Assembly (NCBI GenBank): GCA_964425275.1
Contig: CAYRLZ010000019.1
Span: 1 to 60,629 of the forward strand
DNA from: an uncultured bacterium
Lineage (GTDB): Bacteria > Hydrothermota > Tepidihabitantia > Tepidihabitantales > JBDRVQ01
Direction: 5' to 3'
Length of the DNA stretch: 60,629 bases
The notes beneath the pieces are model-generated. The model was not told the origin of the DNA. It saw only the letters and a list, made by a program, of their open reading frames with translations, and made no database searches. Shown here piece after piece: positions 16,351 to 58,337 of this stretch. Positions within the stretch are counted from its first letter, which is position 1. Each line of letters starts with the position of its first letter. The position numbers were made by a program, and so were the translations under genes.

Positions 16351-16667
16351 CTGGATATATCTCTATAACCTTCGCTACGATGAGGCATAGAGCCAATAAT
16401 AAGATTCCCAATAGGGCTCTTTATAGAAAAGAGAATAGCATCCCGAATAGCACTCTGAATAGGGCGGAGAATAGAACCCCCAATAGGATAGGGAATAGAA
16501 CTCTCAATAGAAAAGAGAATAGGATTACCGATAGGCAAGAGAATAGAATACCGAATAGGATAGAGATTAGAGCCGAGAATAGGTAGAATAATAGGGCATT
16601 TAATACCATACCTAATAGCACCCCCTGTAGCACTCCCCCCTTAAAAAAGAAAAATCCCCTTCCGTGC
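16351..16667. repeat. AATAG-core 12-nt phased repeat array, copy 1 (21 units at 16381-16632, plus conserved flanks)
   Basis: Cutting 16381-16632 by hand into 12-mers puts (A/T)ATAG at positions 6-10 of nearly every unit with no phase slip. Both flanks are shared with 47647-47956. Confidence 0.9.
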
Positions 16668-16698: not shown

Positions 16699-16761
16699 CT
16701 TAATAAAATTAGCCTTTTTCTCATATCTAAATATAGAGTAAAAATCCGCTCAAAGTGTTTC
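16699..16761. repeat. 63-nt conserved block, copy 1
   Basis: CTTAATAAAATTAGCCTTTTTCTCATATCTAAATATAGAGTAAAAATCCGCTCAAAGTGTTTC is identical to 48064-48126 in my hand comparison. Confidence 0.9.
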
Positions 16762-16842
16762 TCTAAATTTAAGAATTTATCTCACTCAACTCCCTGGGCT
16801 AAATTTTGCTTTTTCGGGAAAATGCTCAGAAAGGCTTGTCGG

Positions 16843-18153: not shown

Positions 18154-18214
18154 AATTTAAGTTTAGCCAATTTTCCCCAAAAATCAATAGTTTGTTTATT
18201 CTTTTGCGTGGCTG

Positions 18215-18242
18215 TTGACTTATTGTCGGATAAGTTTATAAT
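18215..18242 (+). promoter_or_regulatory. sigma-70-type promoter, near-leaderless geometry
   Basis: TTGACT (18215-18220), 16-nt spacer, TATAAT (18237-18242). The ATG at 18250 lies 7 nt after the -10 element. Confidence 0.55.
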
Positions 18243-18249
18243 AAAAGAG

Positions 18250-25312: not shown

Positions 25313-25523
25313 GCCGATGCCTAAGTCAGAATTTTTGCGCTGGGCAATCTTTTTCTTTTCTTGCAACAATTTGCACACCGGGAGATTAAAAATTGGGGTT
25401 AGAGTGACTTCATATATATAAGCCTTTTATGACGAATTTATTAGGACTGATTAACTCTCTAGGTCCAGAGGCATTGGGTTTAGATTACCTTGGGAAAGAA
25501 TTTTTAAGCGCTCTTAATCAAAT

Positions 25524-25539
25524 TGGCATAGTTTATGCT
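25524..25539 (+). promoter_or_regulatory. sigma-54 (-24/-12) promoter
   Basis: TGGCATAGTTTATGCT has its GG and GC dinucleotides at the consensus 12-nt offset. It lies 40 nt upstream of ATG 25579. Confidence 0.6.
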
Positions 25540-25578
25540 CTATATATTGATGATGAAAAAGAGAATTGGAGGTGAGTT

Positions 25579-26559: not shown

Positions 26560-26588
26560 CACCATACCCCTGCCCAACCCATCAGGAG

Positions 26589-26627
26589 AGAGGAGCCCCT
26601 TTTAAGGGGCTCCTCTAATTTTTTATT
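26589..26627 (+). terminator. strong intrinsic terminator
   Basis: An 11-bp stem AGAGGAGCCCC-ttttaa-GGGGCTCCTCT followed by a T-rich run. Confidence 0.85.
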
Positions 26628-26676
26628 TTCTTAAAAAGATTTTAGTAGCGACTATTTATTTTTGATTCAAATGAGT

Positions 26677-26702
26677 AAAGTTTAGTAATACTAAACTTTT
26701 TT
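26677..26702 (+). terminator. second, orphan terminator-like hairpin
   Basis: AAAGTTTAG-taata-CTAAACTTT followed by TTT. There is no ORF between it and the preceding terminator. Confidence 0.4.
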
Positions 26703-26778
26703 AATACACTATTTTAACCCTAACATCTTGATTTTACAGGACTTATCGGATTTTTGCTTGATTTTAGGGTATCGCTCC

Positions 26779-26982
26779 CCCTATGCCTTACCCTACCTCT
26801 TACTTAATGCCTTACTGGGTCTTTTAGTCTGTCCTTTACTCTATCCCTTACCTAACCCCTCTCCCTACCTCCTTCTCTTACCCTTTCTCTCCTCTTCTCT
26901 ATCTCCTTCTGATACGCTCCCTGATAGGCTCTCTAATCCCTTCCCTGTGCCTCCTTCTCTCTCTTTCTCTGAACCTCCCCCT
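26779..26982. repeat. pyrimidine-rich 12-nt phased array (about 17 units), degenerate
   Basis: Hand segmentation gives CCCTATGCCTTA / CCCTACCTCTTA / CTTAATGCCTTA / CTGGGTCTTTTA / GTCTGTCCTTTA / CTCTATCCCTTA / ... / CTCTCTTTCTCT / GAACCTCCCCCT. The + strand is C/T-dominated. Confidence 0.6.
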
Positions 26983-27009
26983 TCGTCTCATTTTGATTTG
27001 TGTGTTCAA

Positions 27010-27038
27010 TTGACAAAATTAGATTGTTAAATTATAGT
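27010..27038 (+). promoter_or_regulatory. sigma-70-type promoter, leaderless geometry
   Basis: TTGACA (27010-27015), 17-nt spacer, TATAGT (27033-27038). The ATG at 27046 lies 7 nt after the -10 element, with no SD. Confidence 0.6.
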
Positions 27039-27045
27039 CTATCCT

Positions 27046-28521
27046 ATGAAGGTCATCCTGGCTGGTTTTAATGTGGATACAGCGCACTTATTGAGTCTAA
27101 CGAGGAAAAAGAAGATAGCCCTCACCCCAGAGACGATTGCCGCGGCTTATGCCCGAATCAGTAGAAGTAACTTGTCAGTAACCGAATTAAGAAAAAAGGC
27201 ACGGGAGGAAGTAGAAAAGGCCAGGAAATCGGCGAAGAGGATAATCTTTGATATGGGGCACCATTCAATTGCTGAACATGCGGTATTTAATTTTGACATT
27301 ATCGGTATCTCGCGTTTGGCGGTAGAAGAAGTTGAGCGATTTCGTTTAGGTTCTTATACAGAAAAATCGCAGAGGTATGTTATCTTTGAAAAAGGCTATT
27401 TCATCCCGCCGGAGATTAGGTCAACTTCTTATGAAAAGAACTATTCAGCACTCATTGCCGAGCAATTTGAATTTTATCACTACCTGATTGAAAAAATAAA
27501 GGCGTATATTTTGCAGGAAAATAAGGGGATTAAAGAGAAGGACGCGGAAAACCGGGCAAAAGAAGATGCCCGCTACTGCCTCCCTTTGGCCACAACCACT
27601 CAATTAGGGATGACAATCAACGCCCGAAATTTAGAATATCTTTTAAGAAACTCAGCCGCCGCACCTTTGAGAGAAATAAGAGAGTTGGGGAAAAGACTCT
27701 TCTCCGCGGTAAAGGAAATCGCCCCTTCCCTCTTACTTTTCTATCAATCAACGGCCTATGAAGAAAAGAGAGGTGAGGATTTAAGGGAATTAATCCAGAA
27801 AAATCTTGGCCAAAATATAAGTAAGGCGACGCCAGGCACAGTTAACAGCACTTCGGAAGGAGATGTTAGGCTTATCTACTATAACCCAGATTCCGAGCCT
27901 TTAATCGCCGCGGCCCTTCTTTATCCTTATGCCTCTTTACCCTTTGGGGAACTAAAGAAAATTGTCTTGGGGAAAGAGAGGGAGATTCTAAAAACCGCCT
28001 GTCGCTATTTAGAGTTTTACGATGCCCTTCCCCGAGAATTTGAACTCGCTCATTTTATATTTGAGATTACCCTTTCCGCCTCGGCCTTTGCTCAATTGAA
28101 ACGGCATCGGATGGCAACTCTAATCAAGAGACCTTATTCACCCGAACTCGGTTTTGTCCTTCCACCATCAATCGCAAAAATTGGGGAGGGTGAGAGATTT
28201 AAGGACCTCATTGCGAAGACAAATCAATTTTTTTACTCCTTAGAAAAGTCTCATCCGGCGATAAAAGAATATATCCTCACCAATGCCCATAAGCGAAGGG
28301 TTCTTTTGGGCTTGAATGCTCGGGAATTATATCATCTCAGCCGTTTGCGTTCGGATGCCACCGCTCAGTGGGAAATCAGGAAGATTTCCGATGCGATTGT
28401 TAAAATCGTTCAAAGAGACCTGCCCCTCCTTTTCTTTTTATTATCCGGAAAGGATAAATATCATGAGGTCTATAAGGATGTATATGGTTGCCAGCCGAAA
28501 TTCCGGCCACCAAAGATATAA
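27046..28521 (+). CDS. thyX: tandem (fused double-domain) FAD-dependent thymidylate synthase ThyX-like protein
   Basis: 491 aa, about twice the usual ThyX length. The N-terminal half has HHSIAEH and RFRLGSYTEKSQRY (ThyX motif with H replaced by F). The C-terminal half has QLKRHRMATL and LSRLRSD. Confidence 0.7.
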   Translation: MKVILAGFNVDTAHLLSLTRKKKIALTPETIAAAYARISRSNLSVTELRKKAREEVEKARKSAKRIIFDMGHHSIAEHAVFNFDIIGISRLAVEEVERFRLGSYTEKSQRYVIFEKGYFIPPEIRSTSYEKNYSALIAEQFEFYHYLIEKIKAYILQENKGIKEKDAENRAKEDARYCLPLATTTQLGMTINARNLEYLLRNSAAAPLREIRELGKRLFSAVKEIAPSLLLFYQSTAYEEKRGEDLRELIQKNLGQNISKATPGTVNSTSEGDVRLIYYNPDSEPLIAAALLYPYASLPFGELKKIVLGKEREILKTACRYLEFYDALPREFELAHFIFEITLSASAFAQLKRHRMATLIKRPYSPELGFVLPPSIAKIGEGERFKDLIAKTNQFFYSLEKSHPAIKEYILTNAHKRRVLLGLNARELYHLSRLRSDATAQWEIRKISDAIVKIVQRDLPLLFFLLSGKDKYHEVYKDVYGCQPKFRPPKI

Positions 28522-28533
28522 GGCACAATCGGC

Positions 28534-29604
28534 TTAAAATTCTTGGGTCTGGGAACGGAAAGGAGGGTTTTCTAAATTGGTCTTTACTGAATCTAAGGGG
28601 GAATCAATTGGATAATAGGTCCTTAATAGATAAGAGGGGAGATGAAATGGTTCGTCTTCCAGGTAGGATTTTGCCTTTTCTTCACTTTCAAAGATGAAGT
28701 GGGCAATCTGTTTTTTTATCTCTGGATAAACGGGTAGATAACAGGATAAAACCTCCTGATAACGATGGAGATAAACCGGTGCGGCAAAACCGATTAAGGT
28801 GGCCATTTGGAGAGAAGAGGGCTTGAAACCATTTTGTTTTAGGTGGCTTAGGATATACATAATATCGTCAAAGGTTAAATCGGTATCTTTCCCAATGATT
28901 TTCATTACCCCTTTTACTAAATTTGCCCGAAAGATTGGCTTAGATAATAGACCCCATAAATTCTCCGTGGCGAGTTTAATAAAAATCAAGGAGTTTCTTC
29001 CCCGGTCAATATCATCCCTTTTCCAAATCTTTCGGCTCCGAAGGAGATACCGGGCCTCCTGAGCATTTCTTATCGGTCGGTTGCGGAGGGTGAGGTTTTT
29101 GAGATAAGGCAAAAGAAAGGAAAATATCTCTTGGAAAGAGGACAGGTTGATTGTTAGGTAGCGATGGATTGGAATATTGAAATTCCGTTGAAGGACAGCG
29201 ATTAAGAGTTTTTCTTGACCAAAGAAATAACTGTGATTTATTTTATCCATATGGCAAAAATCGGTATCACTTTCCGCCTTGGTGTAGCCCGGGATATGGA
29301 CGAGCATATCCCGGGGGATATTTATTAAGTTGACAATTCCTTTTTTTAGGTTGATATGGGCAATATTAATGATATCACTCCTTCCCCTCGGTTCTAATTC
29401 TTTGACAACTCTTCCATCCGGTAATTTTTTAAAAAGCAGTCGGGCATCATTGCCAATGATTAGTATGTTAAAGACCTCCCCTAAATCACTCTGATAATCA
29501 GTTTCTTGTGGTTCACGGCGAAAAGGGCGGGTGTTTTTTATAAGAAAAATCGCAACCAGAAGAAGCGAGGAGGAAAGGAAAATTAAGGCAATTAACCGGC
29601 GCAT
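28534..29604 (-). CDS. LytR-CpsA-Psr (LCP) family protein
   Basis: N-terminal TM anchor. The segment NILIIGNDAR...RGRSDIINIAHIN is typical of LCP phosphotransferases. Confidence 0.75.
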   Translation of the reverse strand: MRRLIALIFLSSSLLLVAIFLIKNTRPFRREPQETDYQSDLGEVFNILIIGNDARLLFKKLPDGRVVKELEPRGRSDIINIAHINLKKGIVNLINIPRDMLVHIPGYTKAESDTDFCHMDKINHSYFFGQEKLLIAVLQRNFNIPIHRYLTINLSSFQEIFSFLLPYLKNLTLRNRPIRNAQEARYLLRSRKIWKRDDIDRGRNSLIFIKLATENLWGLLSKPIFRANLVKGVMKIIGKDTDLTFDDIMYILSHLKQNGFKPSSLQMATLIGFAAPVYLHRYQEVLSCYLPVYPEIKKQIAHFIFESEEKAKSYLEDEPFHLPSYLLRTYYPIDSPLDSVKTNLENPPFRSQTQEF

Positions 29605-29688
29605 AACGACGGTATTTAATCAACCAGCGAACTTATTTCTAATAGGATAAGGTAGATTACTAAAAAGTCAACCGACAGGGTGGTCGTC

Positions 29689-29717
29689 TTGACTAATTGG
29701 GGAGAATTTAGTAAAAT
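29689..29717 (+). promoter_or_regulatory. sigma-70-type promoter
   Basis: TTGACT (29689-29694), 17-nt spacer, TAAAAT (29712-29717). The GTG start at 29723 lies 5 nt downstream. Confidence 0.45.
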
Positions 29718-29722
29718 TTATC

Positions 29723-30685
29723 GTGAGAAAGATTTGCGTTTGTGCGATTGGTGGAAACTCCTTAATCCAAAGCCCAAATAGTTTTTCCTTTTATGACCAG
29801 TATGAAACAGTTAAGGAGACCTGTCGCCATTTGCTTCCGATAATTAAAGAAGGTTACGAATTGGTTATCACCCACGGTAACGGACCTCAGATTGGGTTTC
29901 TTCTTCTCCGCTCCCATTTCTCTCGGAATCTCCTTCCGGAAATTCCCTTAGAAGGAGGGAATGCGATGACCCAAGGAGAAATCGGCTATATGATTAGCGA
30001 GACCCTCACTAATATTTTAAGGGAGAAGAATATAGAAAAGGAGGCAGTGGCCGTTCTCACCCGGGTCCTGGTCTCCCCTTTTGACCCCTCTTTCAAAAGA
30101 CCGACAAAACCAATTGGTCCTTTCTATTCCCGGGCCGAGGCGGCGGAACTACAAAAAAAATATCAGTGGGTAATGAAGGAAGATGCCGGGAGAGGTTTTC
30201 GTCGGATTGTTCCGTCTCCAAAACCACTTGATATCTTGGAAAAAGAGGCGATAAAAGACCTCTTAGATAAAGGCTCGGTTGTTATCGCCTGCGGCGGTGG
30301 CGGAATCCCAGTCGTCAGAGAAGATGGCGTGCCAACTGAAAGAAAAGCCATTACTTATCGGGGGGTGGCCAGTGTTGTTGATAAAGATTTAGCCTCAAGT
30401 CTTTTGGCGACCCTTATCCAGGCATCACTCTTTATTATCTCGACCGCGGTGGATCGGGTCTATTTGAATTATGGGCAAGCAAACCAGCGGCCACTTTTCG
30501 TCTTGACCACAAAAGAGGCTAAGCGATACTTAAAGGAAGGACAATTTCCCGAAGGGAGTATGGGGCCGAAGATAAAATCGGCGATAAGGTTTTTGGAAAG
30601 TGGCGGGGAAGAGGTAATTATCACATCCCCGGAGAAGATTGGGATGGCATTAAAGGGAAAGGCCGGGACAAGGGTTATCCGATGA
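29723..30685 (+). CDS. arcC: carbamate kinase
   Basis: 320 aa with AIGGNSL, THGNGPQIG, DAGRGFRRIVPSPKP, GGGGIPV, VVDKDLAS and FPEGSMGPKI, all carbamate kinase signatures. Confidence 0.88.
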   Translation: MRKICVCAIGGNSLIQSPNSFSFYDQYETVKETCRHLLPIIKEGYELVITHGNGPQIGFLLLRSHFSRNLLPEIPLEGGNAMTQGEIGYMISETLTNILREKNIEKEAVAVLTRVLVSPFDPSFKRPTKPIGPFYSRAEAAELQKKYQWVMKEDAGRGFRRIVPSPKPLDILEKEAIKDLLDKGSVVIACGGGGIPVVREDGVPTERKAITYRGVASVVDKDLASSLLATLIQASLFIISTAVDRVYLNYGQANQRPLFVLTTKEAKRYLKEGQFPEGSMGPKIKSAIRFLESGGEEVIITSPEKIGMALKGKAGTRVIR

Positions 30686-31953
30686 AGAGTAATCAAGAAA
30701 AATTTCTGATTTTTAATCTAATTCTTTTAGGAATCATAGCAAGTGCGGTCAGTTCTGGGGAGCGGCTTTTAATCCCGATGGATTTCAAACAGACCGACCA
30801 CCTTAGGGCTTATGGGGTTGCTTATCGTGCCTTACAGAAGGGGATAAAGGTTGAGTGGTTACTTAACTATCGCGGCGGTTCCTTTATGATGGCCCGCACC
30901 GATTGGGGAGAAAGGGAGTGCCGACTGAAAGGCGTCTCCTACGAAATTATACCCGCTTGGGAAGAGGCGGAGATAAGAAAGACAATTGTTAATAATAATA
31001 TGGAGGCTATTCTCTTAGAGAAGGCACCAAAGGTTGCGGTTTATGTGCCGCCCAATGCTGAACCCTGGGACGATGCCGTCCGTTTGGCATTGGAATATGC
31101 TGAGATTCCCTATACCGCGTTATGGGATAAAGAGGTTTTGGCCGGGAAGATCTTCCATTACGACTGGCTTCATCTTCATCATGAAGATTTTACCGGGCAG
31201 TATGGAAAGTTTTATGGCAGTTATGCCAACGAAGCCTGGTATAAAGAAGAAGTGAAGACGAACGAATTGATGGCCAAGACCTTAGGGTTTAATAAGGTTT
31301 CAAAGTTAAAACTGGCAGTAATTAAGGAGATTAAACGGTATATTGAGGGAGGGGGGATGGTCTTTGCGATGTGTTCCTCAACCGATACCCCGGATATTGC
31401 CCTGGCCGCTGAGGCAACGGATATTTGCCCGAAGGAATTTGATGGTGACGGGATTGACCCCAATTACCGGGCGAAGTTGGATTATAGTAATTGCCTGGCT
31501 TTTGAAAACTTCAATCTAATCACCGACCCTTATCTTTATGAACATTCGGATATTGATGTCTATAATGAGGCACAGGCTCGGGGACCGGATGTCTATTTTT
31601 CCCTCTTTGACTTTTCCGCCAAATATGACCCGGTTCCCTGTATGTTAGTGCAAAACCATGTTTCATTAGTGAAAGAATTTTTGGGACAGAACTGTGGTTT
31701 CCGAAGGGATAAGATAAAAAAGCGGGTTTTAATTTTAGGCGAGGTTGTTGGGACGGAAGAGGTAAAATATATTCACGGAAATTTTGGCAAAGGGACCTTT
31801 ACCTTTTTAGGAGGACATGACCCAGAAGATTATGCCCACCGCATTGGCGACCCACCAACTAATTTGGCATTGCATAAAAATTCTCCGGGCTACCGTTTAA
31901 TCCTTAATAATGTCCTCTTTCCGGCCGCGGAGAAGAAACCATTAAAGACTTAA
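30682..31953 (+). CDS. conserved exported or membrane-anchored protein (a family I recall being auto-annotated as asparagine synthetase B in Bacteroidetes)
   Basis: 423 aa with an N-terminal hydrophobic anchor. The segment MDFKQTDHLRAYGVAYRALQKGIKVEWLLNYRGGSFMM resembles that family. The start overlaps the arcC stop (ATGA). Confidence 0.5.
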   Translation: MKSNQEKFLIFNLILLGIIASAVSSGERLLIPMDFKQTDHLRAYGVAYRALQKGIKVEWLLNYRGGSFMMARTDWGERECRLKGVSYEIIPAWEEAEIRKTIVNNNMEAILLEKAPKVAVYVPPNAEPWDDAVRLALEYAEIPYTALWDKEVLAGKIFHYDWLHLHHEDFTGQYGKFYGSYANEAWYKEEVKTNELMAKTLGFNKVSKLKLAVIKEIKRYIEGGGMVFAMCSSTDTPDIALAAEATDICPKEFDGDGIDPNYRAKLDYSNCLAFENFNLITDPYLYEHSDIDVYNEAQARGPDVYFSLFDFSAKYDPVPCMLVQNHVSLVKEFLGQNCGFRRDKIKKRVLILGEVVGTEEVKYIHGNFGKGTFTFLGGHDPEDYAHRIGDPPTNLALHKNSPGYRLILNNVLFPAAEKKPLKT

Positions 31954-47034: not shown

Positions 47035-47538
47035 TTATTTTTTAACGACCAATTCTATTTCCATCTCCTTCACAATATTTAAGAGATGATTTCTCAAGAG
47101 TTTAAGAAACCGGGGGAGATATTTCTCTAAGAAACCGAAGAGATGGGGATGAAAATAGATAAAACCTACCTTATTTAAGGAAAATATACCGGAATAGTAG
47201 TTAAATGTCTCTTCGGTAAAAAACCGATGATGAGTTGGATCCTTAAAGGCGAGATAAGAGGAGTAATAAGGAACCCGGATATGAACTTGGGCGCCACTCT
47301 TACCGATTCGCCATATCTCATTCATAACCTTCCCTGTGTCCGAGATATGCTCAAGGCAATGGATGGCAATTACCTTATCAAACGAACTGTCCGGAAAAGG
47401 ATAGGGAGTTTTTTCTAAATCCCAAACAACCTCTACATCTGGGAAGGGAGATTTATCTAAATGGCAGACCTCTTCTCCTTCTTTTCCCGGATAGGGTTTT
47501 AAGCCACTCCCTAGTTCAAGAATTTTTACTTTCGCCAT
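47035..47538 (-). CDS. small class I SAM-dependent methyltransferase
   Basis: 167 aa with ILELGSG (motif I) and VIAIHCLEHI. Confidence 0.7.
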   Translation of the reverse strand: MAKVKILELGSGLKPYPGKEGEEVCHLDKSPFPDVEVVWDLEKTPYPFPDSSFDKVIAIHCLEHISDTGKVMNEIWRIGKSGAQVHIRVPYYSSYLAFKDPTHHRFFTEETFNYYSGIFSLNKVGFIYFHPHLFGFLEKYLPRFLKLLRNHLLNIVKEMEIELVVKK

Positions 47539-47582
47539 CCCTTAAAGGTAAGAGAAATTCACTAAATGTCAACTGCTTTTGG

Positions 47583-47621
47583 GATTAAAATTTAGGGGAA
47601 CCTGATAAAAAGGTTTCCCCC
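47583..47621 (-). terminator. minus-strand terminator-like hairpin downstream of array 2
   Basis: On the minus strand: GGGGAAACCT-tttatc-AGGTTCCCC followed by TAAATTTTAAT. There is no T-run on the + strand. Confidence 0.5.
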
Positions 47622-47646
47622 AGGAAACTTCTATCCATTAGAATCA

Positions 47647-47956
47647 CTGGATATTAACCTTTGCTACGATGAGGCATAGAGCCAATAATAGCACTCTGAA
47701 TAGAACAGTTTATAGGAAGGAGAATAGCATCACCAATAGCATCTCCAATAGGAGAGAGAATAGATTTCTGTATAGGAAGGAGAATAGACCTCTCAATAGA
47801 AAAGAGAATAGGATTATCAATAGGAAAGAGAATAGGGTAGGAAATAGAATTCCGAATAGGCAGGAGAATAGGGTATAGAATAGGGCATTTAATACCATCC
47901 TAAATAGCACCCCCTGTAGCACTCCCCCCTTCAAAAAGAAAAATCCCCTTCGGTGC
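47647..47956. repeat. AATAG-core 12-nt phased repeat array, copy 2 (21 units at 47670-47921, plus conserved flanks)
   Basis: Same flanks, unit count and phase as 16351-16667, with diverged inter-core positions. Confidence 0.9.
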
Positions 47957-48063
47957 TGGGTGGCTTAGTCGCAGATAAAAGGAGTTAGGTCTTTTTAATT
48001 AGTTATTATCTTATCTCATTTTTACCTCCCCAGTATAAAATATAAGTTATTGATTTAACTTCA

Positions 48064-48126
48064 CTTAATAAAATTAGCCTTTTTCTCATATCTAAATATA
48101 GAGTAAAAATCCGCTCAAAGTGTTTC
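48064..48126. repeat. 63-nt conserved block, copy 2
   Basis: Identical to 16699-16761. Confidence 0.9.
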
Positions 48127-48194
48127 ATGGAATTTTAATTTTCAAAAGAGAGAAATATCATTTCGGAATGAGTTGAGAAGGGTTTGGAATGAGT

Positions 48195-49778
48195 TTAAAA
48201 TAACTTTCGGCTATAGGATAGACTTATCTTCTCCGAAGAAAAACTCTTCTCCTTTGCCGAAGAGAAGATACTGAAATCGCCATTGAGATTTAAGATGTCC
48301 TGTTTCGTCAGAGAATAATTAAGACCCGAACGGAAAGAAGTGTTTTTGCCTAAAGCGGAAGGTTGATAGGAAAGGGTGAGATTACCTTTCAACCGACCTT
48401 TTAATAAAGGGGGTGGACTTGCGGTCAAATTATAACTCTGGTAGTTCGGTTTCGGTTGGGTATCAGAAGGTGAAAGATTGAATACCCGACTGAAAGAAGT
48501 AGAGAAGGTAATCGGGATTTTTAAGCTGAGGGAATAATTTAATCCTGTGGTTAAAGTTCGGCGGGAAGGCGAGGAAGAGATTGGAATTTTATTCTTATAA
48601 TCCTGATAGGTCAAAATCAAATTGAGATTCTGATCGAAGCCAAAAGCCGAATAGCGAAAGTTTGGTGTGAGATTTAAGTTTTGGATTAAAGTATTAACCT
48701 TAAAACTATCGCTTATCCCCTCTCTTTCTTTTAATGTCGCCTTCCCATTATAATTGAGATTTATATTTACCACTTTTAGTGGTGTGGTGCGGAGAGAAAA
48801 ACCTAAGCCCCGATTTTGGGTGGTCGCTAATTTATCGTTGATTAAGTTATCCTCCTCTCTTTCCCAACTTACCCCCATCTCAGTTTTCGGAATGATTTTC
48901 ATTGTAATCCCAATCTTAAATCTTCGGGAATCGTTTTTCCGATAAGAAAGCCCCAGAGAGGTAAAACCAGGACCAATTTGCCCTAAGGAGAAATCAAGGG
49001 TGAAGAGTTTATGATTAAACTTCAATCCACCCCGGAAGGCGTAATCAACTCGGGAGGAATAACGGGGCTGGTAGAAAGAATAGGCAAAGCGCGGAACCTC
49101 TTTCAAGTAGATGGTATCGCTTCTTAAATCCCGGGTATGGACACTACCGGTAACCTCAAAGTCAAAGAAAAGATAACGGAAGAGAGAGAAATTGGAACCA
49201 AAACCGAGAACTAAATTCTCCTGGGGGGCTAAGGGTAGGGTATCTTTCATCTTGATTGAACTCGTATCGTCCTTCGCCTTCAGGATGGTCAAAGATAGAA
49301 AATCCGCGCCCAATTTCAAACCATAGAGATAACGATTATACGACCATTCACTCGTATCCGCCCTTTTTGCCCGACCGCCAACCAGAGAGAAGCGAAACCT
49401 TTTCGGAAATAGTTCAATCCCGGCCCCATAGAGCGAGACATTAGATAAGGTATATTCGGAAAAGGCCGGCGAGAAATCACCGAGATATATCCTCCCCCAT
49501 CCCCAGGATGGGTTGAGATTAAACTGATGCACCCTTTGCGCCGTGAATCTGTCCTCGGAGGTGTAAAATAGACCAAACCCAACACTAAATAAAGGGAAAC
49601 CAAACGCCGAGTTCAGGGAGAGATGGTAAGATGATGAAGGCTTTCGCTTCTTAGTTGTGTCCGAATTGTGATAAAAATCAAAACCCGAGGAGAACTCACC
49701 CGTAAGGGTTGGCTTCGGTATCCTTATCGCCCAAAGCCAAGAAAAGAAAAAGAGGAAGAGGAAAATAATCCGAGTCAT
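48195..49778 (-). CDS. outer-membrane beta-barrel protein (family unknown)
   Basis: 527 aa with a signal peptide. Alternating-hydrophobicity strands throughout. The C-terminal ...LSYSRKLF ends in an aromatic residue typical of OMPs. Confidence 0.65.
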   Translation of the reverse strand: MTRIIFLFLFFFSWLWAIRIPKPTLTGEFSSGFDFYHNSDTTKKRKPSSSYHLSLNSAFGFPLFSVGFGLFYTSEDRFTAQRVHQFNLNPSWGWGRIYLGDFSPAFSEYTLSNVSLYGAGIELFPKRFRFSLVGGRAKRADTSEWSYNRYLYGLKLGADFLSLTILKAKDDTSSIKMKDTLPLAPQENLVLGFGSNFSLFRYLFFDFEVTGSVHTRDLRSDTIYLKEVPRFAYSFYQPRYSSRVDYAFRGGLKFNHKLFTLDFSLGQIGPGFTSLGLSYRKNDSRRFKIGITMKIIPKTEMGVSWEREEDNLINDKLATTQNRGLGFSLRTTPLKVVNINLNYNGKATLKEREGISDSFKVNTLIQNLNLTPNFRYSAFGFDQNLNLILTYQDYKNKIPISSSPSRRTLTTGLNYSLSLKIPITFSTSFSRVFNLSPSDTQPKPNYQSYNLTASPPPLLKGRLKGNLTLSYQPSALGKNTSFRSGLNYSLTKQDILNLNGDFSIFSSAKEKSFSSEKISLSYSRKLF

Positions 49779-51776: not shown

Positions 51777-54700
51777 CTAATAACTAAATCGCACCGAAGA
51801 GAATGTGCTTAATCCCGCGCCATTGATCGCGGAAACCTTAAAGATATAAAACCTCCCGCTGGCTATCCCAATCGTGCGGAGTTGACTGGGGGTGAAGGCG
51901 ATACTTCTCATCCCAGTGGGCGCATCGGTCCAGTTGGTAATTGGGTCGCCGTTTTCCGCTTCAAAACGGAAACGATAGGCATAGATACCCGACTCTCGGT
52001 CATAGGTGCTATCCCAGGCAAAGGTGTAATATAAATTCTTTGTGTAACGGACACCAAAAGAAGGTGGTGGTGTCTGATCCGAAAATTGAACAATCAAGGA
52101 GGCGGTATCCATACTCTCTAAGGTCATCGGCTCAATTGTTGGCAACCTTGAATGATTAAAAGCCCGAACCGTCAAAAATAATGTATCCCCATTTTTCAAA
52201 GGAGAGGAGGGAAGCGCATAGAAATAGGCAAAGGTCGGAGAAAGCCTCGTGGTATCAACAACATCAGTCCCAAACGGTCTCTTGCCAATGGAATAGACAT
52301 AGCGCCAAATCCCTGATTCTCGGTCCTCTGACCTCTGCCAGCGGGCAAATAGGGTCTGGGGTCCGCGATAAAGGGTCTGCAAGAATTCAAGGATTTGAGG
52401 TTTAGTTGGCGGCGAGGTATCAATTTTTATTACCTTCTCTCCTTCCGCACCCCACAAACCAACTCCATTCTTTGCCTTCACCCCTAATTTATAGGTTTCG
52501 CCCGAAGCAAGACGCAGATTTCGGATATTCACCTCGGTCCGGCCACCAGAAGATGTCCAGTCTAAAACCGGATTATAAACATACCGCCTCAAAACTGGAC
52601 TATAGAAATAACTACCCAATCGGTATTGATACTCCTCAATCCCGGACTCACCATCAAAGGCGGACCATTGAGCATAAATCTGACCGGAACTGGCAATAAG
52701 CGTGTCCGTAGTTATTGCTGGTCTTGTTGGCGGCGTGGTATCAAGCGAACTCATCCGGTTTCGCTGCGGTGGGACATCCGGACCATAATAATCGACCCGA
52801 ACTACCCCTTTTCTGGTTATCGGATAGCCACCCGCACCCCTGGCGCGTAAGAATATGCCGTAGTCACCTGGCTCAGTGATTTTTGATATGAATGGTAGCC
52901 AGAGGCTTCGGGCTAATCCCAAGGTCTTGGGAGAGGGGAGTATTCTAAACCTTTCCCCTTCCTTTCTCAACCAGAAACTATAGTCAACAACCCTTACCGG
53001 ATGGGTTGCCGACCAAGAGAGGTTAAGCCGACCAAAGCCACTGGGCATTGTCGCATCGGAGATGTATTCGCCCGGAAAAGATGTGATTCTTGGCGGCGTC
53101 AAAAGTCGTGCCAATTCCGACTTTCTCCTTGATGCCGGACTAAAGTTTAATGTTCGGGCAATCATCGGATAGGTCCTTCCTCTAATCGTTACTGTCCTTC
53201 TCGGAACCGGTGTTGGCACATCACCAGAAAGTTCAATCTGGTCATAAAGGTCATAGAGCAATTCATAAAATTCGCTCTTCCGAGCATAGACCCGGTCCAA
53301 GGAATTTGTCCAGTTCGCCCAGGAACGGGAAAAATTACCCGTGCTCCTCTGATAAACCGCAATCACTGTATCCCTCCTTTCCGGCGCTCGCCTTAAAATC
53401 TCCTGATAGCCGGCCTTGGGGATATTATACCAGATCTCCATTCCGAAACTCACCCACATATTCCGCAGACCTTCAAGGTCCGAAGGAATCGGTGGCCAAT
53501 TCTCAACCGGTTCCTGAAGCAAGACACGATAAATGATCTCTCGCCGGCTGTTGGTCCAAATCACCAATGGCAATGAGTCGATCCGGTTAACCGCACTCCA
53601 CAAAAATCTAAGAAGGGCGGTGCTACAGGGCAAATTCCCCCGCCAGACAACTCTCCCCCCAACGGTGTCCTCCCGATAAATCTGGCGGTTAAAGAAGAAA
53701 TTAATCTTGCGCGCGGCATTATTCTGGTTCTTATCCAGATATTGACCAAAGAGCCAGTAGTAGTCAATCACCTTCTGGTAACCCTGATAATAAAGACTGC
53801 AAAGAGTAGACATATCATTTCTCTGATACCGGGTGCTAATATATAAGAGGCTATCTAATTTTAATAGTTTCTCATCAATCACCCCAGCAATCCTTAAAAG
53901 TTCCTGGCGGTATTGCTCATTATCGCTCTTGGCATTATTTATTGCTCCCTTCTGCTCATCGGCCTGAGTATAATCAATATCATAACCGACCTGGGCGGTA
54001 ACAGTAAACCCTGTATCTGTGCCTTGGACCGTAATTGTTTGGGAATTTTTCCCTCTCAGTGGTGAGCCTAACAACCCAACCTCCCTTACCGTTGGCAACC
54101 TTTCTTCTAAGATTGCCCGATAACCCTCAAGCCTTCGGTTAACCCTTGCCTGGGTGCTATCAATCTCACTCCGGAGGAAATAACCAGTCAACCTCTCTTT
54201 CTCATTTAAGGTATCCCTCATCCTTTTCAACTCCGCGGAGACCGGGTCAAAGATTCCCGAATCCCTCTGGGAGGCAAAAATCGCCGGCAGTGTTCCAAAA
54301 ATCATTAGCCAACGATTCACTTCTATGTCATACCAACTGCGATAGTTTTCATATTGCCAGCCACTCACCTCAACCAATGCCATCCCGGCCCTTTGCCTCT
54401 GTTCCTCGCTCAAGGCGAACATTGTCATCTTCGCCTCATCCATTGCCTCCTTCACCCGCTCCTTTTCCGCCTCCATCTCATTCGCCATATTCCTCGCATC
54501 CGCAATCAACTGGTCATACCTTGAATTTCTCCCGGTTCCGCCATCAAAACCATTCTTGCCCATTGCGACCCAGATGCTACCATTAAATACCTCAACCCAT
54601 AACGCCTCAACCCGTAAGCTACCAACGCAATAGATTAGATATTCCGGCTCACCAATCAAAGCCCCTTCTAAACCAAAACTAACACCAGCCAATCCCCATA

Positions 54701-57700
54701 AGATCTCCCCCTCCGCCCGGACACCGGCATAACCACCCCAGGACCTCGGGTCAATCTTTTTATACCAGACCATACCATCAAAATCGATACTCCCGCTCAG
54801 GATGTAAATATCAATCCCGAAACCAAATGAGACCTCAAGTAAAAATCCCGGATTACCAATAAAGAAATCGGTTTCCGCATCAACGATCCTGATGACCGAA
54901 AGTTCTGCCCCACCCATAATCCCCCAGGCATCCGGAGAATAGACATAAAATTCAAAATAACCATTTCCGGTGATCAATTCAACGACATCAACATCAATCT
55001 CAACCCGGCCTTCGGCATAAGCCGGATTCCAGCCAACCGAAAGATAAAGCATCCCTTTCGCATCAATCCCCGGCTCCGCAATCTTTAAGACCCTTGCCTC
55101 CGCATCCAGGTCAAACCTTCGGGTCGATAGCGTGAGAAGCGCCTTTCCGGTCACTAAGGCATCGCTTCCCAAGAATTCGACCGCTCCGTAAAGAAGTAAG
55201 GCAAAGGCACCCGGGTCACTGGCGCTCGGCCTCTTCGCTTGAAACTTATTTTCCATCGCCGGTCGGGTGAAACCGCAGTGCGTCCGAACCGTAGCTATAT
55301 CAATCTCCTCCGGATACCAGAAGAAACCACCACCCAAATCAGTCAAGGTAATACCCGGACCAACCGGAACCTGAAGCCCCCGCACCGCCACGAATAGACC
55401 AAATGATGGGTGTCCGTCCCGATTCCCAATCTTACCAACACAGGTAACCCCCATCCCCGAAGTGATATTCAGTGTTCCGGCAAACCTCAGATTTCCGGTG
55501 GGATTAGAATAATCATAATCCGCCAGAAGTTGCATTCCGGCAATCGAGAGGTCCGCACCGGTTAAAGTGACCTTTTTGGAACCACCACTGGTCGGCTTAT
55601 AGACTAAAAGTCGGTCAAAGCCACCGGAGGCAATACTACCACCACTCCCGATATTTATCGCCGCATCCTCCATTAAGAAAAAGCCACGACAACTAATGCT
55701 CTGCGTCCCACTCTGAAAGTTCCTCCTTTCCCCTTCACCGGTCGTCTGGTCAGAATTGAAAGAAAGGGTCGTATCCTTATCACTCCATCGGATTAAACCG
55801 ATACTGATATTAAAAACCTCCAAGATCTTAAAGCCTCCACCCCGAACTGTTGGATATTCAATATCACCATTGGTTCTAATCTTCAAACCCTCAATCCTTG
55901 CCCCACCACCAACCCCATAGACATTAATCCCTAATGAGCAATTGAAGACAAAGGCAAAGGGCAGTGGCTCAATCGCCATCGTTTCCAACTTAAATCGGAT
56001 GACATCACCCAAATTGAGCCTTTTATCCCGAATTACCGGTATGGATGGCGGTAAGTTCCAGTTCAGATTGCCGTTGAAATCAATCGTAATCGCGCCTTCT
56101 AACTGACCTAAGCGATTTAATTCGCCAATCGCCAATCGCCTCTGCTCAACGGGCAGAAGTCGATCCGCATCATCCTTGAACGGAAAGTAGATATCCATCG
56201 CCATCTCAATCTTTGACTGGTTCAATTTCAAGTCGTTATTAACGATGGTTAAGGTTATGCCTAAGTAGGTTAAATCCAGGGTGCAGTCAACTACCGGAAT
56301 CCGAAACTCCGAAAGGTCATTATTTGTTCCCCTCCGGTCCGGAGATAATTCATTCAAAGGCACAATCTTACCAACCGTATTGCCATCCCTGTCAATTAAA
56401 AAACTGAAACGGGTCCGGGGTAAAATCGTATCAATCGGTTTTGGTAGACTCTCAATCTTACCGGTAAACCTCAGATAGTATTGGTTCAAACTGTCATAGA
56501 AATTTATCGTATCTAATTTCAGATAGGGGTTATTGGGGATAAACCGAAATGGGTCGGCGAAGGCAAAACGACCGGTGATTTTACCCTGATGGGTAACCTT
56601 GAAATTGGTAAATTGCGTCAAAACGGTTTGCGTCCCCTGCCGGGAAAGTTTTATATCGCCACAAAACTCCGCCCATAAGGTATCACCGGTCTTACCAACC
56701 GTAATCGCCCGATTAGGACTGATATCGTGCAAGGAAAAGGTAACACCCCATTTGCTAAATTCTTGGGTGGTGGAAAACCCCTTTCCCTCAATCCCGGTCC
56801 TTCTAACGATTAAATCGTTCAACTCGTATAAAGTGACATTGATTACCGGGATATTCAACTTGGCATTCACCGAGATAAAATCAACCGTTCCTCCCCGCTT
56901 CTCAAATCTTAACTTGGTCACTTTCAAAAAGTTATTCTTATAGCCAAAGAAACTGGTATCCGCTCCTGCGCTCCTCTGCACAACACCAGTATCAATCGTT
57001 GAGCGGAATCGGTCCGAAGGATTTAAGACAATCTTGAAATTGGACAAGGTGCAGGATGAAACCGAATTGTTATCGAGAGAGAGCAACTTCATCGTTGCCA
57101 CTGTCCCATCCGGAAAACGATAACGATTGCTTCCCGGTGGACCATCCGGTATTAAGGGATTGCTAATCTCTTTAATTAAGGCAACGCCATCAACCAAAAG
57201 CAATGAGTCAACCCTCAATCCGGTATCGCGAACCACCTCGTAATTGACACTATCTTTTAATTCATTAGGCTCAGTAATCTCAATCTTCAACTTATGAGAG
57301 CCGATGTTTCCCTCACCAGTTGGCAAAGAGATTGAAAAGAAGGAATCGGGTAAGCCATAGGTATGTTGACTGAAAACCCGCCAAGGTGAGTTATCAATCA
57401 AGAACCTTCCCCGGACATCGCCACTCCCCCTTCCCCAAAACTTCACCTTGGCCTGAACCGTCGCATTTACTGGAATCTGTCGGGCAAGGAACAATCGGAC
57501 CGAATCAAGAGAGAACTCCGGTTCTCTTGTCGTCTTATAAGTAAATTGCCAGATCTCACTCTTCCCTTCGTTATCACCAATCGGCACATCATTTCGGTCC
57601 TTGGCTTGAACCTGCCAGCAATAACTCTTATTCTCCTCTAAGGCTTGGGCGGAATTGGGATAGGTGAAACTTATTCGGTCAACAATCACCTCGCTGTGAT

Positions 57701-58337
57701 GCGGGATATTATTAATCGCCACCTCCGGTGTCTGACCCGCTCTAATCTCACAAATCTTTAAGTGGTAACGAACAACAAAACCGGGATGAGATGTCGCCGG
57801 TGTCCACTGGAAGGTCGGGAATTGAATCCGGACCGTATCAAAATTCGCCGGCGCAACCAGCGAAGGCGGATTAAAACTCAGGATATAAAATACCGCTTCC
57901 CTCTCCGCCAAAACCCCACCGGTTCCCACTCGGACCAATTGGACATAAAGGGTATAAGTTCCTTCCAAAAGCCTTCCGGTGCGGACGATCTGATCCCGAT
58001 AATCCGGATTATAAGTGATATTTCGGTAGTTCAAAAAATCCCGGTTATCCCGATAGATTGTCTGGGGAGAGGTAAAGATAATATTGTCCGATTGGCCGGT
58101 GGCAATCTCACCCCGTTCCGCGGATACGACCCTTGACACCAAACGCACGGACTCCGGAGTTGAGCCGGAATAATTGATTGTGATATTAACAATTCCGGGG
58201 TTATTTTCCCAATCTGAGACAAAAGGGCTCGGATAAGATTGGCAGGAAAGATTAAGCGAGAAATCCTGGGCGAAAAGATAAAAATTAAAAATAAAAAAAA
58301 TTGGCAAAAAAAACTTAATTTTGTTTAAGGGGCTCAT
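51777..58337 (-). CDS. giant secreted multidomain protein (2186 aa) with C-terminal FN3-like repeats
   Basis: Signal peptide (FFLPIFFIFNFYLFAQ). A long beta-rich body, a short Glu/Lys/Ala-rich segment near EMEAEKERVKEAMDEAK, and three C-terminal modules (DTTPPTRP / DTSPPTKP / DQTPPPS ... ESGI..Y.Y). SD AAGGAGAGG. Confidence 0.8.
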   Translation of the reverse strand: MSPLNKIKFFLPIFFIFNFYLFAQDFSLNLSCQSYPSPFVSDWENNPGIVNITINYSGSTPESVRLVSRVVSAERGEIATGQSDNIIFTSPQTIYRDNRDFLNYRNITYNPDYRDQIVRTGRLLEGTYTLYVQLVRVGTGGVLAEREAVFYILSFNPPSLVAPANFDTVRIQFPTFQWTPATSHPGFVVRYHLKICEIRAGQTPEVAINNIPHHSEVIVDRISFTYPNSAQALEENKSYCWQVQAKDRNDVPIGDNEGKSEIWQFTYKTTREPEFSLDSVRLFLARQIPVNATVQAKVKFWGRGSGDVRGRFLIDNSPWRVFSQHTYGLPDSFFSISLPTGEGNIGSHKLKIEITEPNELKDSVNYEVVRDTGLRVDSLLLVDGVALIKEISNPLIPDGPPGSNRYRFPDGTVATMKLLSLDNNSVSSCTLSNFKIVLNPSDRFRSTIDTGVVQRSAGADTSFFGYKNNFLKVTKLRFEKRGGTVDFISVNAKLNIPVINVTLYELNDLIVRRTGIEGKGFSTTQEFSKWGVTFSLHDISPNRAITVGKTGDTLWAEFCGDIKLSRQGTQTVLTQFTNFKVTHQGKITGRFAFADPFRFIPNNPYLKLDTINFYDSLNQYYLRFTGKIESLPKPIDTILPRTRFSFLIDRDGNTVGKIVPLNELSPDRRGTNNDLSEFRIPVVDCTLDLTYLGITLTIVNNDLKLNQSKIEMAMDIYFPFKDDADRLLPVEQRRLAIGELNRLGQLEGAITIDFNGNLNWNLPPSIPVIRDKRLNLGDVIRFKLETMAIEPLPFAFVFNCSLGINVYGVGGGARIEGLKIRTNGDIEYPTVRGGGFKILEVFNISIGLIRWSDKDTTLSFNSDQTTGEGERRNFQSGTQSISCRGFFLMEDAAINIGSGGSIASGGFDRLLVYKPTSGGSKKVTLTGADLSIAGMQLLADYDYSNPTGNLRFAGTLNITSGMGVTCVGKIGNRDGHPSFGLFVAVRGLQVPVGPGITLTDLGGGFFWYPEEIDIATVRTHCGFTRPAMENKFQAKRPSASDPGAFALLLYGAVEFLGSDALVTGKALLTLSTRRFDLDAEARVLKIAEPGIDAKGMLYLSVGWNPAYAEGRVEIDVDVVELITGNGYFEFYVYSPDAWGIMGGAELSVIRIVDAETDFFIGNPGFLLEVSFGFGIDIYILSGSIDFDGMVWYKKIDPRSWGGYAGVRAEGEILWGLAGVSFGLEGALIGEPEYLIYCVGSLRVEALWVEVFNGSIWVAMGKNGFDGGTGRNSRYDQLIADARNMANEMEAEKERVKEAMDEAKMTMFALSEEQRQRAGMALVEVSGWQYENYRSWYDIEVNRWLMIFGTLPAIFASQRDSGIFDPVSAELKRMRDTLNEKERLTGYFLRSEIDSTQARVNRRLEGYRAILEERLPTVREVGLLGSPLRGKNSQTITVQGTDTGFTVTAQVGYDIDYTQADEQKGAINNAKSDNEQYRQELLRIAGVIDEKLLKLDSLLYISTRYQRNDMSTLCSLYYQGYQKVIDYYWLFGQYLDKNQNNAARKINFFFNRQIYREDTVGGRVVWRGNLPCSTALLRFLWSAVNRIDSLPLVIWTNSRREIIYRVLLQEPVENWPPIPSDLEGLRNMWVSFGMEIWYNIPKAGYQEILRRAPERRDTVIAVYQRSTGNFSRSWANWTNSLDRVYARKSEFYELLYDLYDQIELSGDVPTPVPRRTVTIRGRTYPMIARTLNFSPASRRKSELARLLTPPRITSFPGEYISDATMPSGFGRLNLSWSATHPVRVVDYSFWLRKEGERFRILPSPKTLGLARSLWLPFISKITEPGDYGIFLRARGAGGYPITRKGVVRVDYYGPDVPPQRNRMSSLDTTPPTRPAITTDTLIASSGQIYAQWSAFDGESGIEEYQYRLGSYFYSPVLRRYVYNPVLDWTSSGGRTEVNIRNLRLASGETYKLGVKAKNGVGLWGAEGEKVIKIDTSPPTKPQILEFLQTLYRGPQTLFARWQRSEDRESGIWRYVYSIGKRPFGTDVVDTTRLSPTFAYFYALPSSPLKNGDTLFLTVRAFNHSRLPTIEPMTLESMDTASLIVQFSDQTPPPSFGVRYTKNLYYTFAWDSTYDRESGIYAYRFRFEAENGDPITNWTDAPTGMRSIAFTPSQLRTIGIASGRFYIFKVSAINGAGLSTFSSVRFSY

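Follow-up and report, generated by a model that had tools for sequence, protein, structure and literature searches.

Indel-free 21-unit arrays of a 12-nt-phased AATAG pentamer in a WOR-3 genome, tentatively read as a multivalent docking platform

Contig CAYRLZ010000019.1, a 60,629-nt stretch of bacterial DNA that was analyzed here at its full length (the window), contains two paralogous arrays, A1 and A2, in which the pentamer AATAG recurs once per 12 nt, 21 times over a span of 252 nt. The S7 protein places the window in candidate division WOR-3, and the gene content is that of an ordinary chromosome (a tRNA cluster, tufA, secE-nusG-rplKAJL-rpoBC-rpsLG, uvrA, thyX, polysaccharide genes, and surface proteins sorted by the type IX secretion system [T9SS]). 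A1 lies between two convergent genes, rpsG on the plus strand and a gene for a 436-residue protein on the minus strand. Comparison with two further 21-unit paralogues shows, as judged from where substitutions and indels fall, that selection acts on the AATAG core, the spacing, and the copy number, while the 7-nt linkers appear to be sequence-free spacers of obligatory length. We tentatively favor the view that the arrays may constitute a fixed-geometry multivalent platform, of which one strand, probably in RNA form, would be read by an oligomeric protein whose gene lies elsewhere.

Anchored on TAACCTT, positions 16366-16667 and 47655-47956 could be aligned over 302 nt without a gap, and MAFFT agreed with this alignment inside the arrays. 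Unit 1 begins at offset 20 of the alignment, i.e., at 16386 in A1 and 47675 in A2. An initial annotation of this DNA, based on a hand alignment, had described two copies of 21 units in a common phase, with shared left and right flanks and 7 extra nucleotides (ATCTCTA) in the left flank of copy 1, all of which the computed alignment bore out. Counted over unit positions 1 to 12, mismatches between A1 and A2 numbered 2, 1, 0, 0, 1, 6, 8, 7, 10, 6, 8, and 7. This amounts to 4 differences in 105 core positions and 52 in 147 linker positions (Fisher p = 2e-10), exactly the counts that had been estimated by hand, and neither an equal divergence of core and linker nor a need for indels, either of which would have spoken against the annotation, was seen. 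Fully identical units are 1, 11, 18, 20, and 21; the annotation had correctly named units 1, 11, and 21 but also units 12 and 19, which carry one and three mismatches, respectively, and it had missed units 18 and 20. Differences are unevenly spread over the linkers, with no position affected in five units and 4 to 5 positions affected in eight. When the window was scanned with a four-unit pattern allowing at most 1 mismatch, 29 matches were found versus 0.01 in shuffles, and Tandem Repeats Finder reported arrays with periods of 12, 24, and 36 at 16423-16582 and 47723-47888. Purine-type (GAAAGAG-like) and pyrimidine-type (AACCTCY-like) linkers follow one another in rough alternation, which accounts for the 24-nt super-period in the Tandem Repeats Finder output. 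Base preferences are also visible within the unit, where T never occurs at position 6, A or G predominates at position 7, and position 12 is most often occupied by G or C.

A search for further copies, as the initial annotation had proposed, yielded two additional 21-unit AATAG paralogues among the matches listed by a metagenome pattern scan, A3 (locus L130) and A4 (locus L167). All four A arrays consist of 21 units in one register, with zero indels. The numbers of variable columns among them, from unit position 1 to 12, are 2, 1, 0, 0, 2, 9, 9, 9, 13, 7, 8, and 7 of 19 to 20, and the combination of a conserved core with variable linkers was seen in 6/6 pairs. Linkers diverge by approximately 25 to 37% between arrays, and within each array 18 to 20 of the 20 to 21 linkers are distinct (19 in A3, with 20 units covered). 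Transitions and transversions among the A arrays are about equally frequent (119 versus 122). A3 is a mosaic in which units 2 to 9 match A1 and units 13 to 17 match A2, which shows that the paralogues swap segments in register. Since the flanks carry indels of 7 nt and 73 nt and the two B arrays differ by indels of 12 to 14 nt, the absence of indels from the A arrays reflects selection on linker and total length. The finding of four indel-free 21-unit arrays strengthens the earlier claim of purifying selection on a periodic motif, as opposed to a recent duplication or neutral low complexity.

The initial annotation had also asked whether both loci could be assembly artifacts; independent assemblies gave identical sequence, and the arrays are therefore not artifacts. 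Over 13268-18738, which includes A1, a European Nucleotide Archive (ENA) contig is identical to the window and a Joint Genome Institute (JGI) contig is 1 base off, outside the array, and over 24546-31021, which includes the array B1, the ENA and JGI contigs are both identical to it. A2 recurs in other assemblies at 99.7 to 99.9% identity. At the A4 locus, three JGI samples and one ENA sample agree in every base; the window contig is also present in some of them, and A4 very probably belongs to the same genome as the window. Communities that contain this genome are JGI 3300022548, 3300025794, and 3300010284, ENA ERZ27245602, and SRR5216256. This genome carries at least A1, A2, A4, and two B-type arrays, and probably A3 as well. 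Logan contigs and some JGI contigs break inside the arrays, as multicopy repeats would be expected to cause. One ENA contig end beyond the array (ERZ27245602 k141_148286; L121 1-36) carries a Nextera transposase adapter, CTGTCTCTTATACACATCT, an assembly-end artifact that is not in the window.

Tandem Repeats Finder reported a third, different period-12 array at 26781-26931, within B1, which is located between two terminators and the thyX promoter. The minus strand of B1 is 78% purine, making this the most strand-skewed 250 nt in the window. Its counterpart B2 adjoins A4, and in both of them the 12-nt period is kept with a looser core (GTAAG, ATAG, TAGG). The right flank of the B arrays (…ATACCC-TAAAA…AAAAATCC…) is homologous to that of the A arrays, and B2 is preceded by a collapsed A array (units 1 to 2 and 18 to 20), which together indicate that B is a diverged sister of A and not an unrelated repeat. 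The motif AAAAATCC recurs in the flanks, and it was rejected as a meaningful signal in its own right because it is too common (18 occurrences versus 11.4 expected). In the collapsed array (L376 6944-7029, the same as L167 5107-5192), units 1 to 2 are joined to units 18 to 20 and fused to the start of B2, which shows that relaxed selection can allow entire blocks of units to disappear. Beside B1, the thyX promoter (TTGACA-N17-TATAGT; 27010-27048) ends 7 nt before the ATG at 27046, so that thyX looks leaderless. The ThyX open reading frame (ORF) spans 491 residues and includes two Thy1 stretches, which suggests a tandem-fused ThyX.

The surroundings of the arrays (Table 1) are also partly shared. 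Both A1 and A2 are accompanied by a distal block of 66 to 72 nt that can form a long A/U-rich hairpin, and the linkers that join array and distal block are non-homologous (35 nt for A1 and 108 nt for A2). The candidate promoter that reads into A2 has an equally placed counterpart in A4, a weaker one in A1 (TCGCTA), and none in A3, and the equivalent place beside an array in a second genome (L367; see below) reads TTACTA-N17-CAAATT. Sigma-70 scans found no strong promoter on either strand. The minus-strand hairpin and U-run that had been noted beside A2 are present, as two overlapping hairpins, and the predicted terminator is followed by a canonical -35 element (TTGACA, 47568-47573) for the methyltransferase-rtcA genes. 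Minus-strand terminators directly follow A2 and A4 (2/4 arrays), with homologous stems and different loops. At the three loci with co-oriented neighbors (A2, B1, and A4/B2), the CTATT strand is the sense strand (3/3, p = 0.125), and the B1, A3, and L367 arrays are each situated just upstream of a canonical promoter. As for the earlier suggestion that the CUAUU strand is the transcript, the terminators and the sense orientation fit it, and the left-flank promoter opposes it. Close to A1, a 9-bp hairpin (GCUCAGAAA...UUUCUGAGC) with AUUUUCC behind it (16826-16856, minus strand) overlaps the 436-residue gene at its stop codon, so that this gene is probably terminated before the distal block and A1. 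On the other side, rpsG is not followed by fusA in this lineage, and the relatives (L363-L368 and L384-L388) each carry a different gene at this place (window 16239-16842), which marks the end of the rpoBC-rpsLG cluster as a rearrangement hotspot.

Table 1. Coordinates of the arrays and associated features in the window
Feature	Position	Strand	Remarks
Array A2	47675..47926	.	21 units x 12 nt, AATAG core (+) / CTATT (-), 7-nt variable linkers
Array A1, A2 paralogue	16386..16637	.	21 units, phase as A2
Array B1, sister type	26745..26990	-	12-nt period, degenerate GTAAG / ATAG core
A2 left flank, CTGGATAT-TAACCTTTGCTACGATGAGG	47647..47674	.	Common to A1 and A4; replaced in A3
A1 left flank	16351..16385	.	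7 extra nt (ATCTCTA) compared with A2
A2 right flank, CCCTTCAAAAAGAAAAATCCCCTTCGGTGC	47927..47956	.	Homologous to B-type right flank
A1 right flank	16638..16667	.	Gapless alignment with A2
Distal block, A2 locus	48064..48135	.	94-100% identical to 16699-16770
Distal block, A1 locus	16699..16770	.	Counterpart of 48064-48135
Candidate sigma-70-like promoter, TTGCTA-N17-AATAAT	47661..47689	+	9/12 match; reads into A2 on the AATAG strand
Intrinsic terminator (predicted)	47583..47628	-	Two overlapping G+C-rich hairpins, then U-runs; for transcripts past A2

A period-12 information scan revealed an 11-unit array with an ATTAG core at positions 18740-18871 of L367, a locus of the metagenome-assembled genome GCA_039802085.1, which is one of the WOR-3 relatives with 76 to 84% S7 identity. 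Its cores include seven exact ATTAG copies, plus CTTAG, CTCAG, and ACTAC, and its information content reaches 7.0 bits versus a background of 2.5 +/- 0.66, with a signal that is specific to period 12. The left flank, CCTTACTACCCATCC, resembles the A-array left flank CCTTTGCTACGATGAGG; an nhmmer model of the A arrays did not detect the L367 array. The feature common to all arrays is W-T-A-G every 12 nt. The L367 array lies ~55 nt upstream of the -35 element of a tRNA-Ile(GAT) promoter, and to its right are a purine-rich, B-like stretch and two minus-strand terminator-like hairpins.

Metagenome and viral sequences were scanned with a five-unit pattern, and the matches were filtered for chains of units with diverse linkers. 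The only true relatives among the matches listed were L130 and L167, the others being Asn/Ser-type coding repeats or a eukaryote-like satellite (L139). A scan of genome contigs with four units of AATAG-N7 listed chance single matches and coding repeats. No further relative was found with an nhmmer profile of the four arrays among 380+ fetched loci, and no array was found after rpsG in any of the WOR-3 relatives (S7 identity of 76 to 84%), whose rpsG loci were covered for 10 kb on each side, as far as the contigs reach. Homologues of the methyltransferase that adjoins A4 occur in other contexts, with no arrays. In Rfam, only tRNAs were matched when the whole window was searched with gathering thresholds and when 47500-48200 was searched at E <= 10; neither phages nor plasmids gave a match in blastn; and no such arrays were described in literature searches for AAUAG repeats or 12-nt phased pentamers. 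We read the segment as one member of an array family in WOR-3 bacteria that is lineage-restricted, noncoding, and essentially unstructured. Its architecture matches no described family and is new as a sequence feature, with a function that we infer from the pattern alone.

Each strand of the arrays has one open frame, encoding N-R/S-x-x on the plus strand and L-F/L-x-x on the minus strand. A coding role was rejected, given that the linker mismatches between A1 and A2 are without 3-nt periodicity and that unit positions 3 and 4, one of which is the wobble position in five of the six frames, are invariant; in the sixth frame, the wobble falls on unit position 2, with one A1/A2 difference. CTA is the rarest Leu codon in the window genes (8.1% of Leu codons). 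The array ORFs (two per strand) are absent from a collection of 15 billion predicted proteins, a phmmer search with the minus-strand array ORF gave no match, and gene callers left A1 and A2 uncalled in every assembly; for A4, a 93-residue plus-strand ORF was called in one of three JGI assemblies (L377). A more specific proposal, that the minus strand encodes a small, very hydrophobic protein of 62 residues (MVLNALFYTLFS...LFSFL, with an L-[F/L]-x-x repeat), strikes us as very improbable. Its frame is open, with an ATG (unit 19) and a TAA (from a TATAG variant in unit 4) that are conserved in A1 to A4; it avoids A at second codon positions (T is rare at unit positions 7 and 10), as fits a hydrophobic product; and a terminator follows the ORF at A2 and A4. 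However, each repeat-leading Leu is encoded by CTA, with an invariant wobble base in all units of the four arrays, and the remaining codons vary at all three positions with no third-position excess. The ATG also lacks usable Shine-Dalgarno spacing, the repeats extend past both ends of the ORF (units 1 to 3 and 20 to 21), and the protein database and phmmer searches just mentioned hold no counterpart. Moreover, the ORF is uncalled over any complete array, the pyrimidine-rich strand is open through composition alone, and the L367 array has an open frame with no start codon.

The folding potential of the arrays was compared with that of shuffled sequences. Of 100 shuffles, 95 folded better than the plus strand (z = +1.68); for the minus strand, z was +0.56. 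RNAalifold assigned the four arrays only -12.9 kcal/mol over 241 nt, and its covariation term was -0.94. A conserved RNA secondary structure is ruled out by these shuffle z-scores and by RNAalifold. The initial annotation had called its pairing support suggestive only, and this caution was right, since no strand folds better than shuffles. Two other candidates were discarded as well. Adenine-specific mutagenesis of the type seen in diversity-generating retroelements (DGR) disagrees with three core adenines that never vary and with substitutions that are not A-specific, and attenuation by a Leu/Phe-rich leader peptide disagrees with downstream genes that are mutually unrelated and with A1, which has no downstream gene.

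On the platform reading that we tentatively favor, a sequence-specific protein that is cooperative or oligomeric would place one protomer on each pentamer, the 7-nt linkers would serve only as spacers of obligatory length, and the reader would assemble cooperatively with a fixed step of one pentamer per protomer. In its single-stranded RNA form, the platform would be comparable to the UAG/GAG repeat tracks that wrap TRAP or HutP or to titrating small RNAs (sRNAs) of the CsrB type. TRAP binds 11 (G/U)AG repeats, HutP binds UAG repeats, and CsrB has about 20 GGA sites. We favor RNA readout because the B arrays are strand-asymmetric, because the arrays are depleted of self-pairing, and because TRAP, HutP, and the sponge sRNAs provide precedent; the protein reader, the RNA readout, and the transcribed strand are all points that we infer. 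Several observations weigh against the platform. Only five arrays from two genomes underlie it, and no candidate of the RNA-binding, Nop, Cas, or reverse-transcriptase kind emerged in a Pfam scan that covered about 30 proteins of the window. The 12-nt period is far longer than that of TRAP (5) or HutP (7), and a flexible single strand would be expected to tolerate linkers that differ by +/-1 nt, so that the rigid spacing fits double-stranded DNA or a rigid protein lattice better. In addition, the promoter hints (AATAG strand) and the terminator hints (CTATT strand) point in opposite directions. The arrays at A1, B1, and L367 come after the terminators of upstream genes or sit between a terminator and a promoter, and transcription from neighboring genes is therefore not expected there.

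A rather unlikely alternative is that the arrays act as double-stranded DNA, with 21 sites lined up head to tail along a duplex that a DNA-binding protein coats or wraps, as in plasmid and phage centromeres with short direct repeats, or that they serve as an upstream nucleoprotein element beside promoters. Linker length is rigid, with zero indels, as helical phasing demands, and 21 x 12 = 252 bp corresponds to 24.0 turns at 10.5 bp per turn, with the same helix face recurring every seven units. Positions relative to promoters are also suggestive: B1 ends about 20 nt before the thyX -35 element, A3 lies about 75 nt before TTGACT-N17-TAAATT, the L367 array precedes the tRNA-Ile promoter by about 55 nt, and A2 is located about 100 nt upstream of a TTGACA. 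Terminator and array do not come in a constant order at the different loci, as if transcription from the neighboring gene were nonessential, and linker composition in the A arrays is nearly strand-balanced. Against this, the arrays are chromosomal, beside rpoBC-rpsLG, with no par-like, plasmid, or phage context and no phage or plasmid similarity, and several copies per chromosome would be unusual for a centromere. A1, between convergent genes, has no promoter to serve, and the 78% purine content of one strand of the B arrays points to a single-strand function. Another conceivable reader is Rho, whose hexamer takes up roughly 12 to 13 nt per protomer and whose primary site prefers a YC dinucleotide. 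The CUAUU strand would then be a Rho-utilization (rut-like) track that loads or titrates Rho and thereby insulates neighboring transcription units, which we consider quite improbable. On the minus strand, the C/G ratio is 1.17 for A1 and 1.42 for A2, and one invariant C recurs per 12 nt through all 252 nt; in B1, the ratio rises to 4.0 on the pyrimidine-rich strand, here the plus strand of the window. The base 5' of the invariant C is a pyrimidine in 16/21 units and never A, which gives YC; the minus-strand RNA is unstructured (z = +0.56); and the arrays occur at transcription-unit boundaries, with the CUAUU strand as sense at the three co-oriented loci. Nevertheless, the primary site reads YC alone, which leaves the invariant UAUU, the 21 units, and the conserved flanks unexplained. 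The C/G ratio of the A arrays is barely above 1, the L367 array is A/T-rich, intrinsic terminators that already flank several arrays would make Rho redundant, and the orientation statistic (3/3 loci, p = 0.125) is weak.

That the arrays are guide-RNA or antitoxin-RNA arrays (kin of CRISPR, TIGR, or ToxI) processed to unit-length RNAs seems barely credible to us, even though they combine a conserved repeat with a variable spacer, have leader-like shared flanks, and are followed by a terminator at A2 and A4, and even though the repeats and spacers of TIGR arrays are very short as well (PMC12045711). Spacers of 7 nt are too short to specify a target, and they are shared by descent in arrays that always count 21 units, with no acquisition dynamics. 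There is a single 5-nt repeat in place of two alternating 8-12-nt repeats with UG...CCA boxes, the units are unlike the near-identical 34-45-mers of ToxI, and no Nop, Cas, or toxin gene was found in the 60-kb window by Pfam scans of about 30 of its proteins, nor was any called in the 12-kb A4 locus.

The platform reading can be taken a step further, to a version that is possible but doubtful. In it, the arrays would be the nucleic-acid half of an undescribed WOR-3 system, dispersed "molecular rulers" in which exactly 21 phased W-U/T-A-G sites nucleate a nucleoprotein assembly of defined size (a ring stack or a helical filament, with 12 nt per protomer), and diverged paralogues of the reader protein would recognize the sister arrays whose core is shifted, namely the B type and the ATTAG type in another genus. 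If this is true, the arrays would represent multivalent RNA or DNA scaffolds of a new class, whose specificity co-evolves, and not a variant of CsrB, TRAP, a centromere, or a guide array. They would also be a clean natural case in which selection maintains a geometry, made up of period, phase, and copy number, and a five-letter word but leaves all other sequence free, and they would be the footprint of an undescribed multisubunit reader. To our knowledge, the WOR-3 phylum has no cultured model and no known global RNA-binding regulators. The reader, if found, would constitute a new protein-nucleic-acid recognition module with a 12-nt register, and its target would count as a novel type of regulatory RNA or, alternatively, of chromosomal organizing site. 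The arrays also matter in practice, as they break short-read assemblies of these genomes, and a simple period-12 information scan detects them, which makes the proposal testable in existing metagenomes and metatranscriptomes.

Some features of the window are separate from the arrays. Positions 1-2470 contain small toxin-antitoxin-like genes (DUF433-, PIN-, and HicA/HicB-like by eye), among which there is a single Pfam match, to an aspartyl-protease-like domain. These genes are separated by a 46-nt direct repeat (888-933, 1603-1648, and 2299-2344) at a spacing of ~700 nt, in a cassette-like layout, and the repeat copies at 888 and 1603 are each followed by a terminator hairpin and a TTGACT-N17 promoter (with TATAAT and TATCAT, respectively). 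Positions 88-214 share 80% identity with L167 2902-3025. At 51777-58337, a minus-strand ORF of 2186 residues has no Pfam match at E <= 1e-4; it adjoins an fn3-containing protein of 664 residues and a 527-residue protein that resembles an outer membrane protein (OMP), without Pfam matches.

Finally, we compared the arrays with known systems built from short repeats. CRISPR arrays have ~23-50-nt repeats, unique spacers of similar size, a variable number of units, and cas genes or a leader; here, the unit is 12 nt, the spacers are related by descent, the number is fixed at 21, and no cas genes were found in the Pfam scans of window proteins. Type III antitoxins (ToxI/CptI/TenpI) comprise 2 to 6 near-identical tandem repeats of 34 to 45 nt directly upstream of a toxin gene, as opposed to 12-nt units with 18 to 20 distinct linkers next to rpsG, a methyltransferase gene, thyX, and an OMP-like gene. 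TIGR arrays alternate two 8-12-nt repeats, with UG (box D) and CCA (box C), and 9-nt spacers in a 36-nt unit, adjacent to a Tas gene with a Nop domain (PMC12045711). They resemble the A arrays in their unusually short repeats and spacers, in the frequent intrinsic terminator that follows, and in repeats that are common to arrays of one locus type. The A arrays have a single 5-nt core per 12 nt and 7-nt linkers, with no UG...CCA frame on either strand, and no Nop domain was found in Pfam scans of about 30 window proteins or in the precomputed Pfam lists for the A4 and L367 loci.

Other likenesses concern sequence composition and layout. In the published RUT consensus, which spans 78 nt, C exceeds G and recurs at intervals of 11-13 nt (PMC6407284). 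Over their 252 nt, the minus strands of A1 and A2 have just such a composition and C spacing and are unstructured, and like rut sites the arrays lie between transcription units; natural rut sites, by contrast, have no conserved pentamer, fixed length, or conserved flanks. Intergenic direct repeats of the heptamer TAACTGA are present in Beggiatoaceae, Cyanobacteria, and Bacteroidetes, where a post-transcriptional regulator has been proposed (PMC4679880). Both they and the arrays are short direct motifs that are intergenic and lineage-restricted, but the TAACTGA repeats are contiguous, with a period of 7 and 2 to 43 copies, usually just upstream of start codons, whereas the arrays place a pentamer in a 12-nt unit and keep a fixed number. 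The arrays likewise do not behave as protein-coding repeats, with invariant wobble positions, no homologues, and a repeated CTA that makes up 8.1% of Leu codons.

The remaining systems bind proteins along a regular track. In TubZRC, the 12-bp repeats of tubC are bound by TubR, and iteron arrays of this kind are presumably coated or wrapped by a protein. Centromere iterons (tubC, parC, stbDR) share with the arrays short head-to-tail direct repeats at a fixed period (12 bp in tubC) and a conserved core with a variable spacer, and the tandem direct repeats of the arrays do keep a fixed helical period, of exactly 12 bp with zero indels in four arrays. Unlike iterons, the arrays are chromosomal and multicopy, have no adjacent partition genes, and count 21 repeats instead of 7 to 10, and the strand skew of the B arrays is extreme. 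The sole ParA-like match is an Mrp/NUBPL-type P-loop protein about 12 kb away. Titrating sRNAs (CsrB/CsrC, RsmX/Y/Z, and CrcZ) are similar in that about 5 to 22 short motifs are carried by a fast-evolving RNA that has several paralogues and is unlinked to the gene of the bound protein. The arrays differ in having AAUAG/CUAUU and not GGA or an A-rich CA motif, in having no presenting hairpins, and in their fixed spacing and number. Where CsrB and RsmZ are recognized by GGA in hairpin loops and by an Rfam match, the arrays give no Rfam match at E <= 10 and show no excess folding, and the hints of discrete sRNA borders, a weak plus-strand promoter in 3/4 left flanks and minus-strand terminators after 2/4 arrays, run in opposite directions. 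TRAP targets contain (G/U)AG triplets 2-3 nt apart (11 copies) and HutP targets UAG triplets 4 nt apart (three copies, twice), both within a 5' leader that overlaps an antiterminator/terminator. In the arrays, UAG triplets are 9 nt apart, number 21, and lie outside a leader, so that the 12-nt period stands against 5 or 7 and the 21 repeats against 11 or 6; the arrays do not govern a terminator from a 5' leader, and they are orphan and multicopy, with no TRAP or HutP gene in view. What they share with the TRAP and HutP tracks of the Bacillus trp and hut leaders is a short UAG-containing motif repeated directly at a regular interval in unstructured RNA with sequence-free spacers, and a protein oligomer that sets the repeat number in TRAP and HutP, as we propose for the arrays; these nearest analogies are functional and not homologous.

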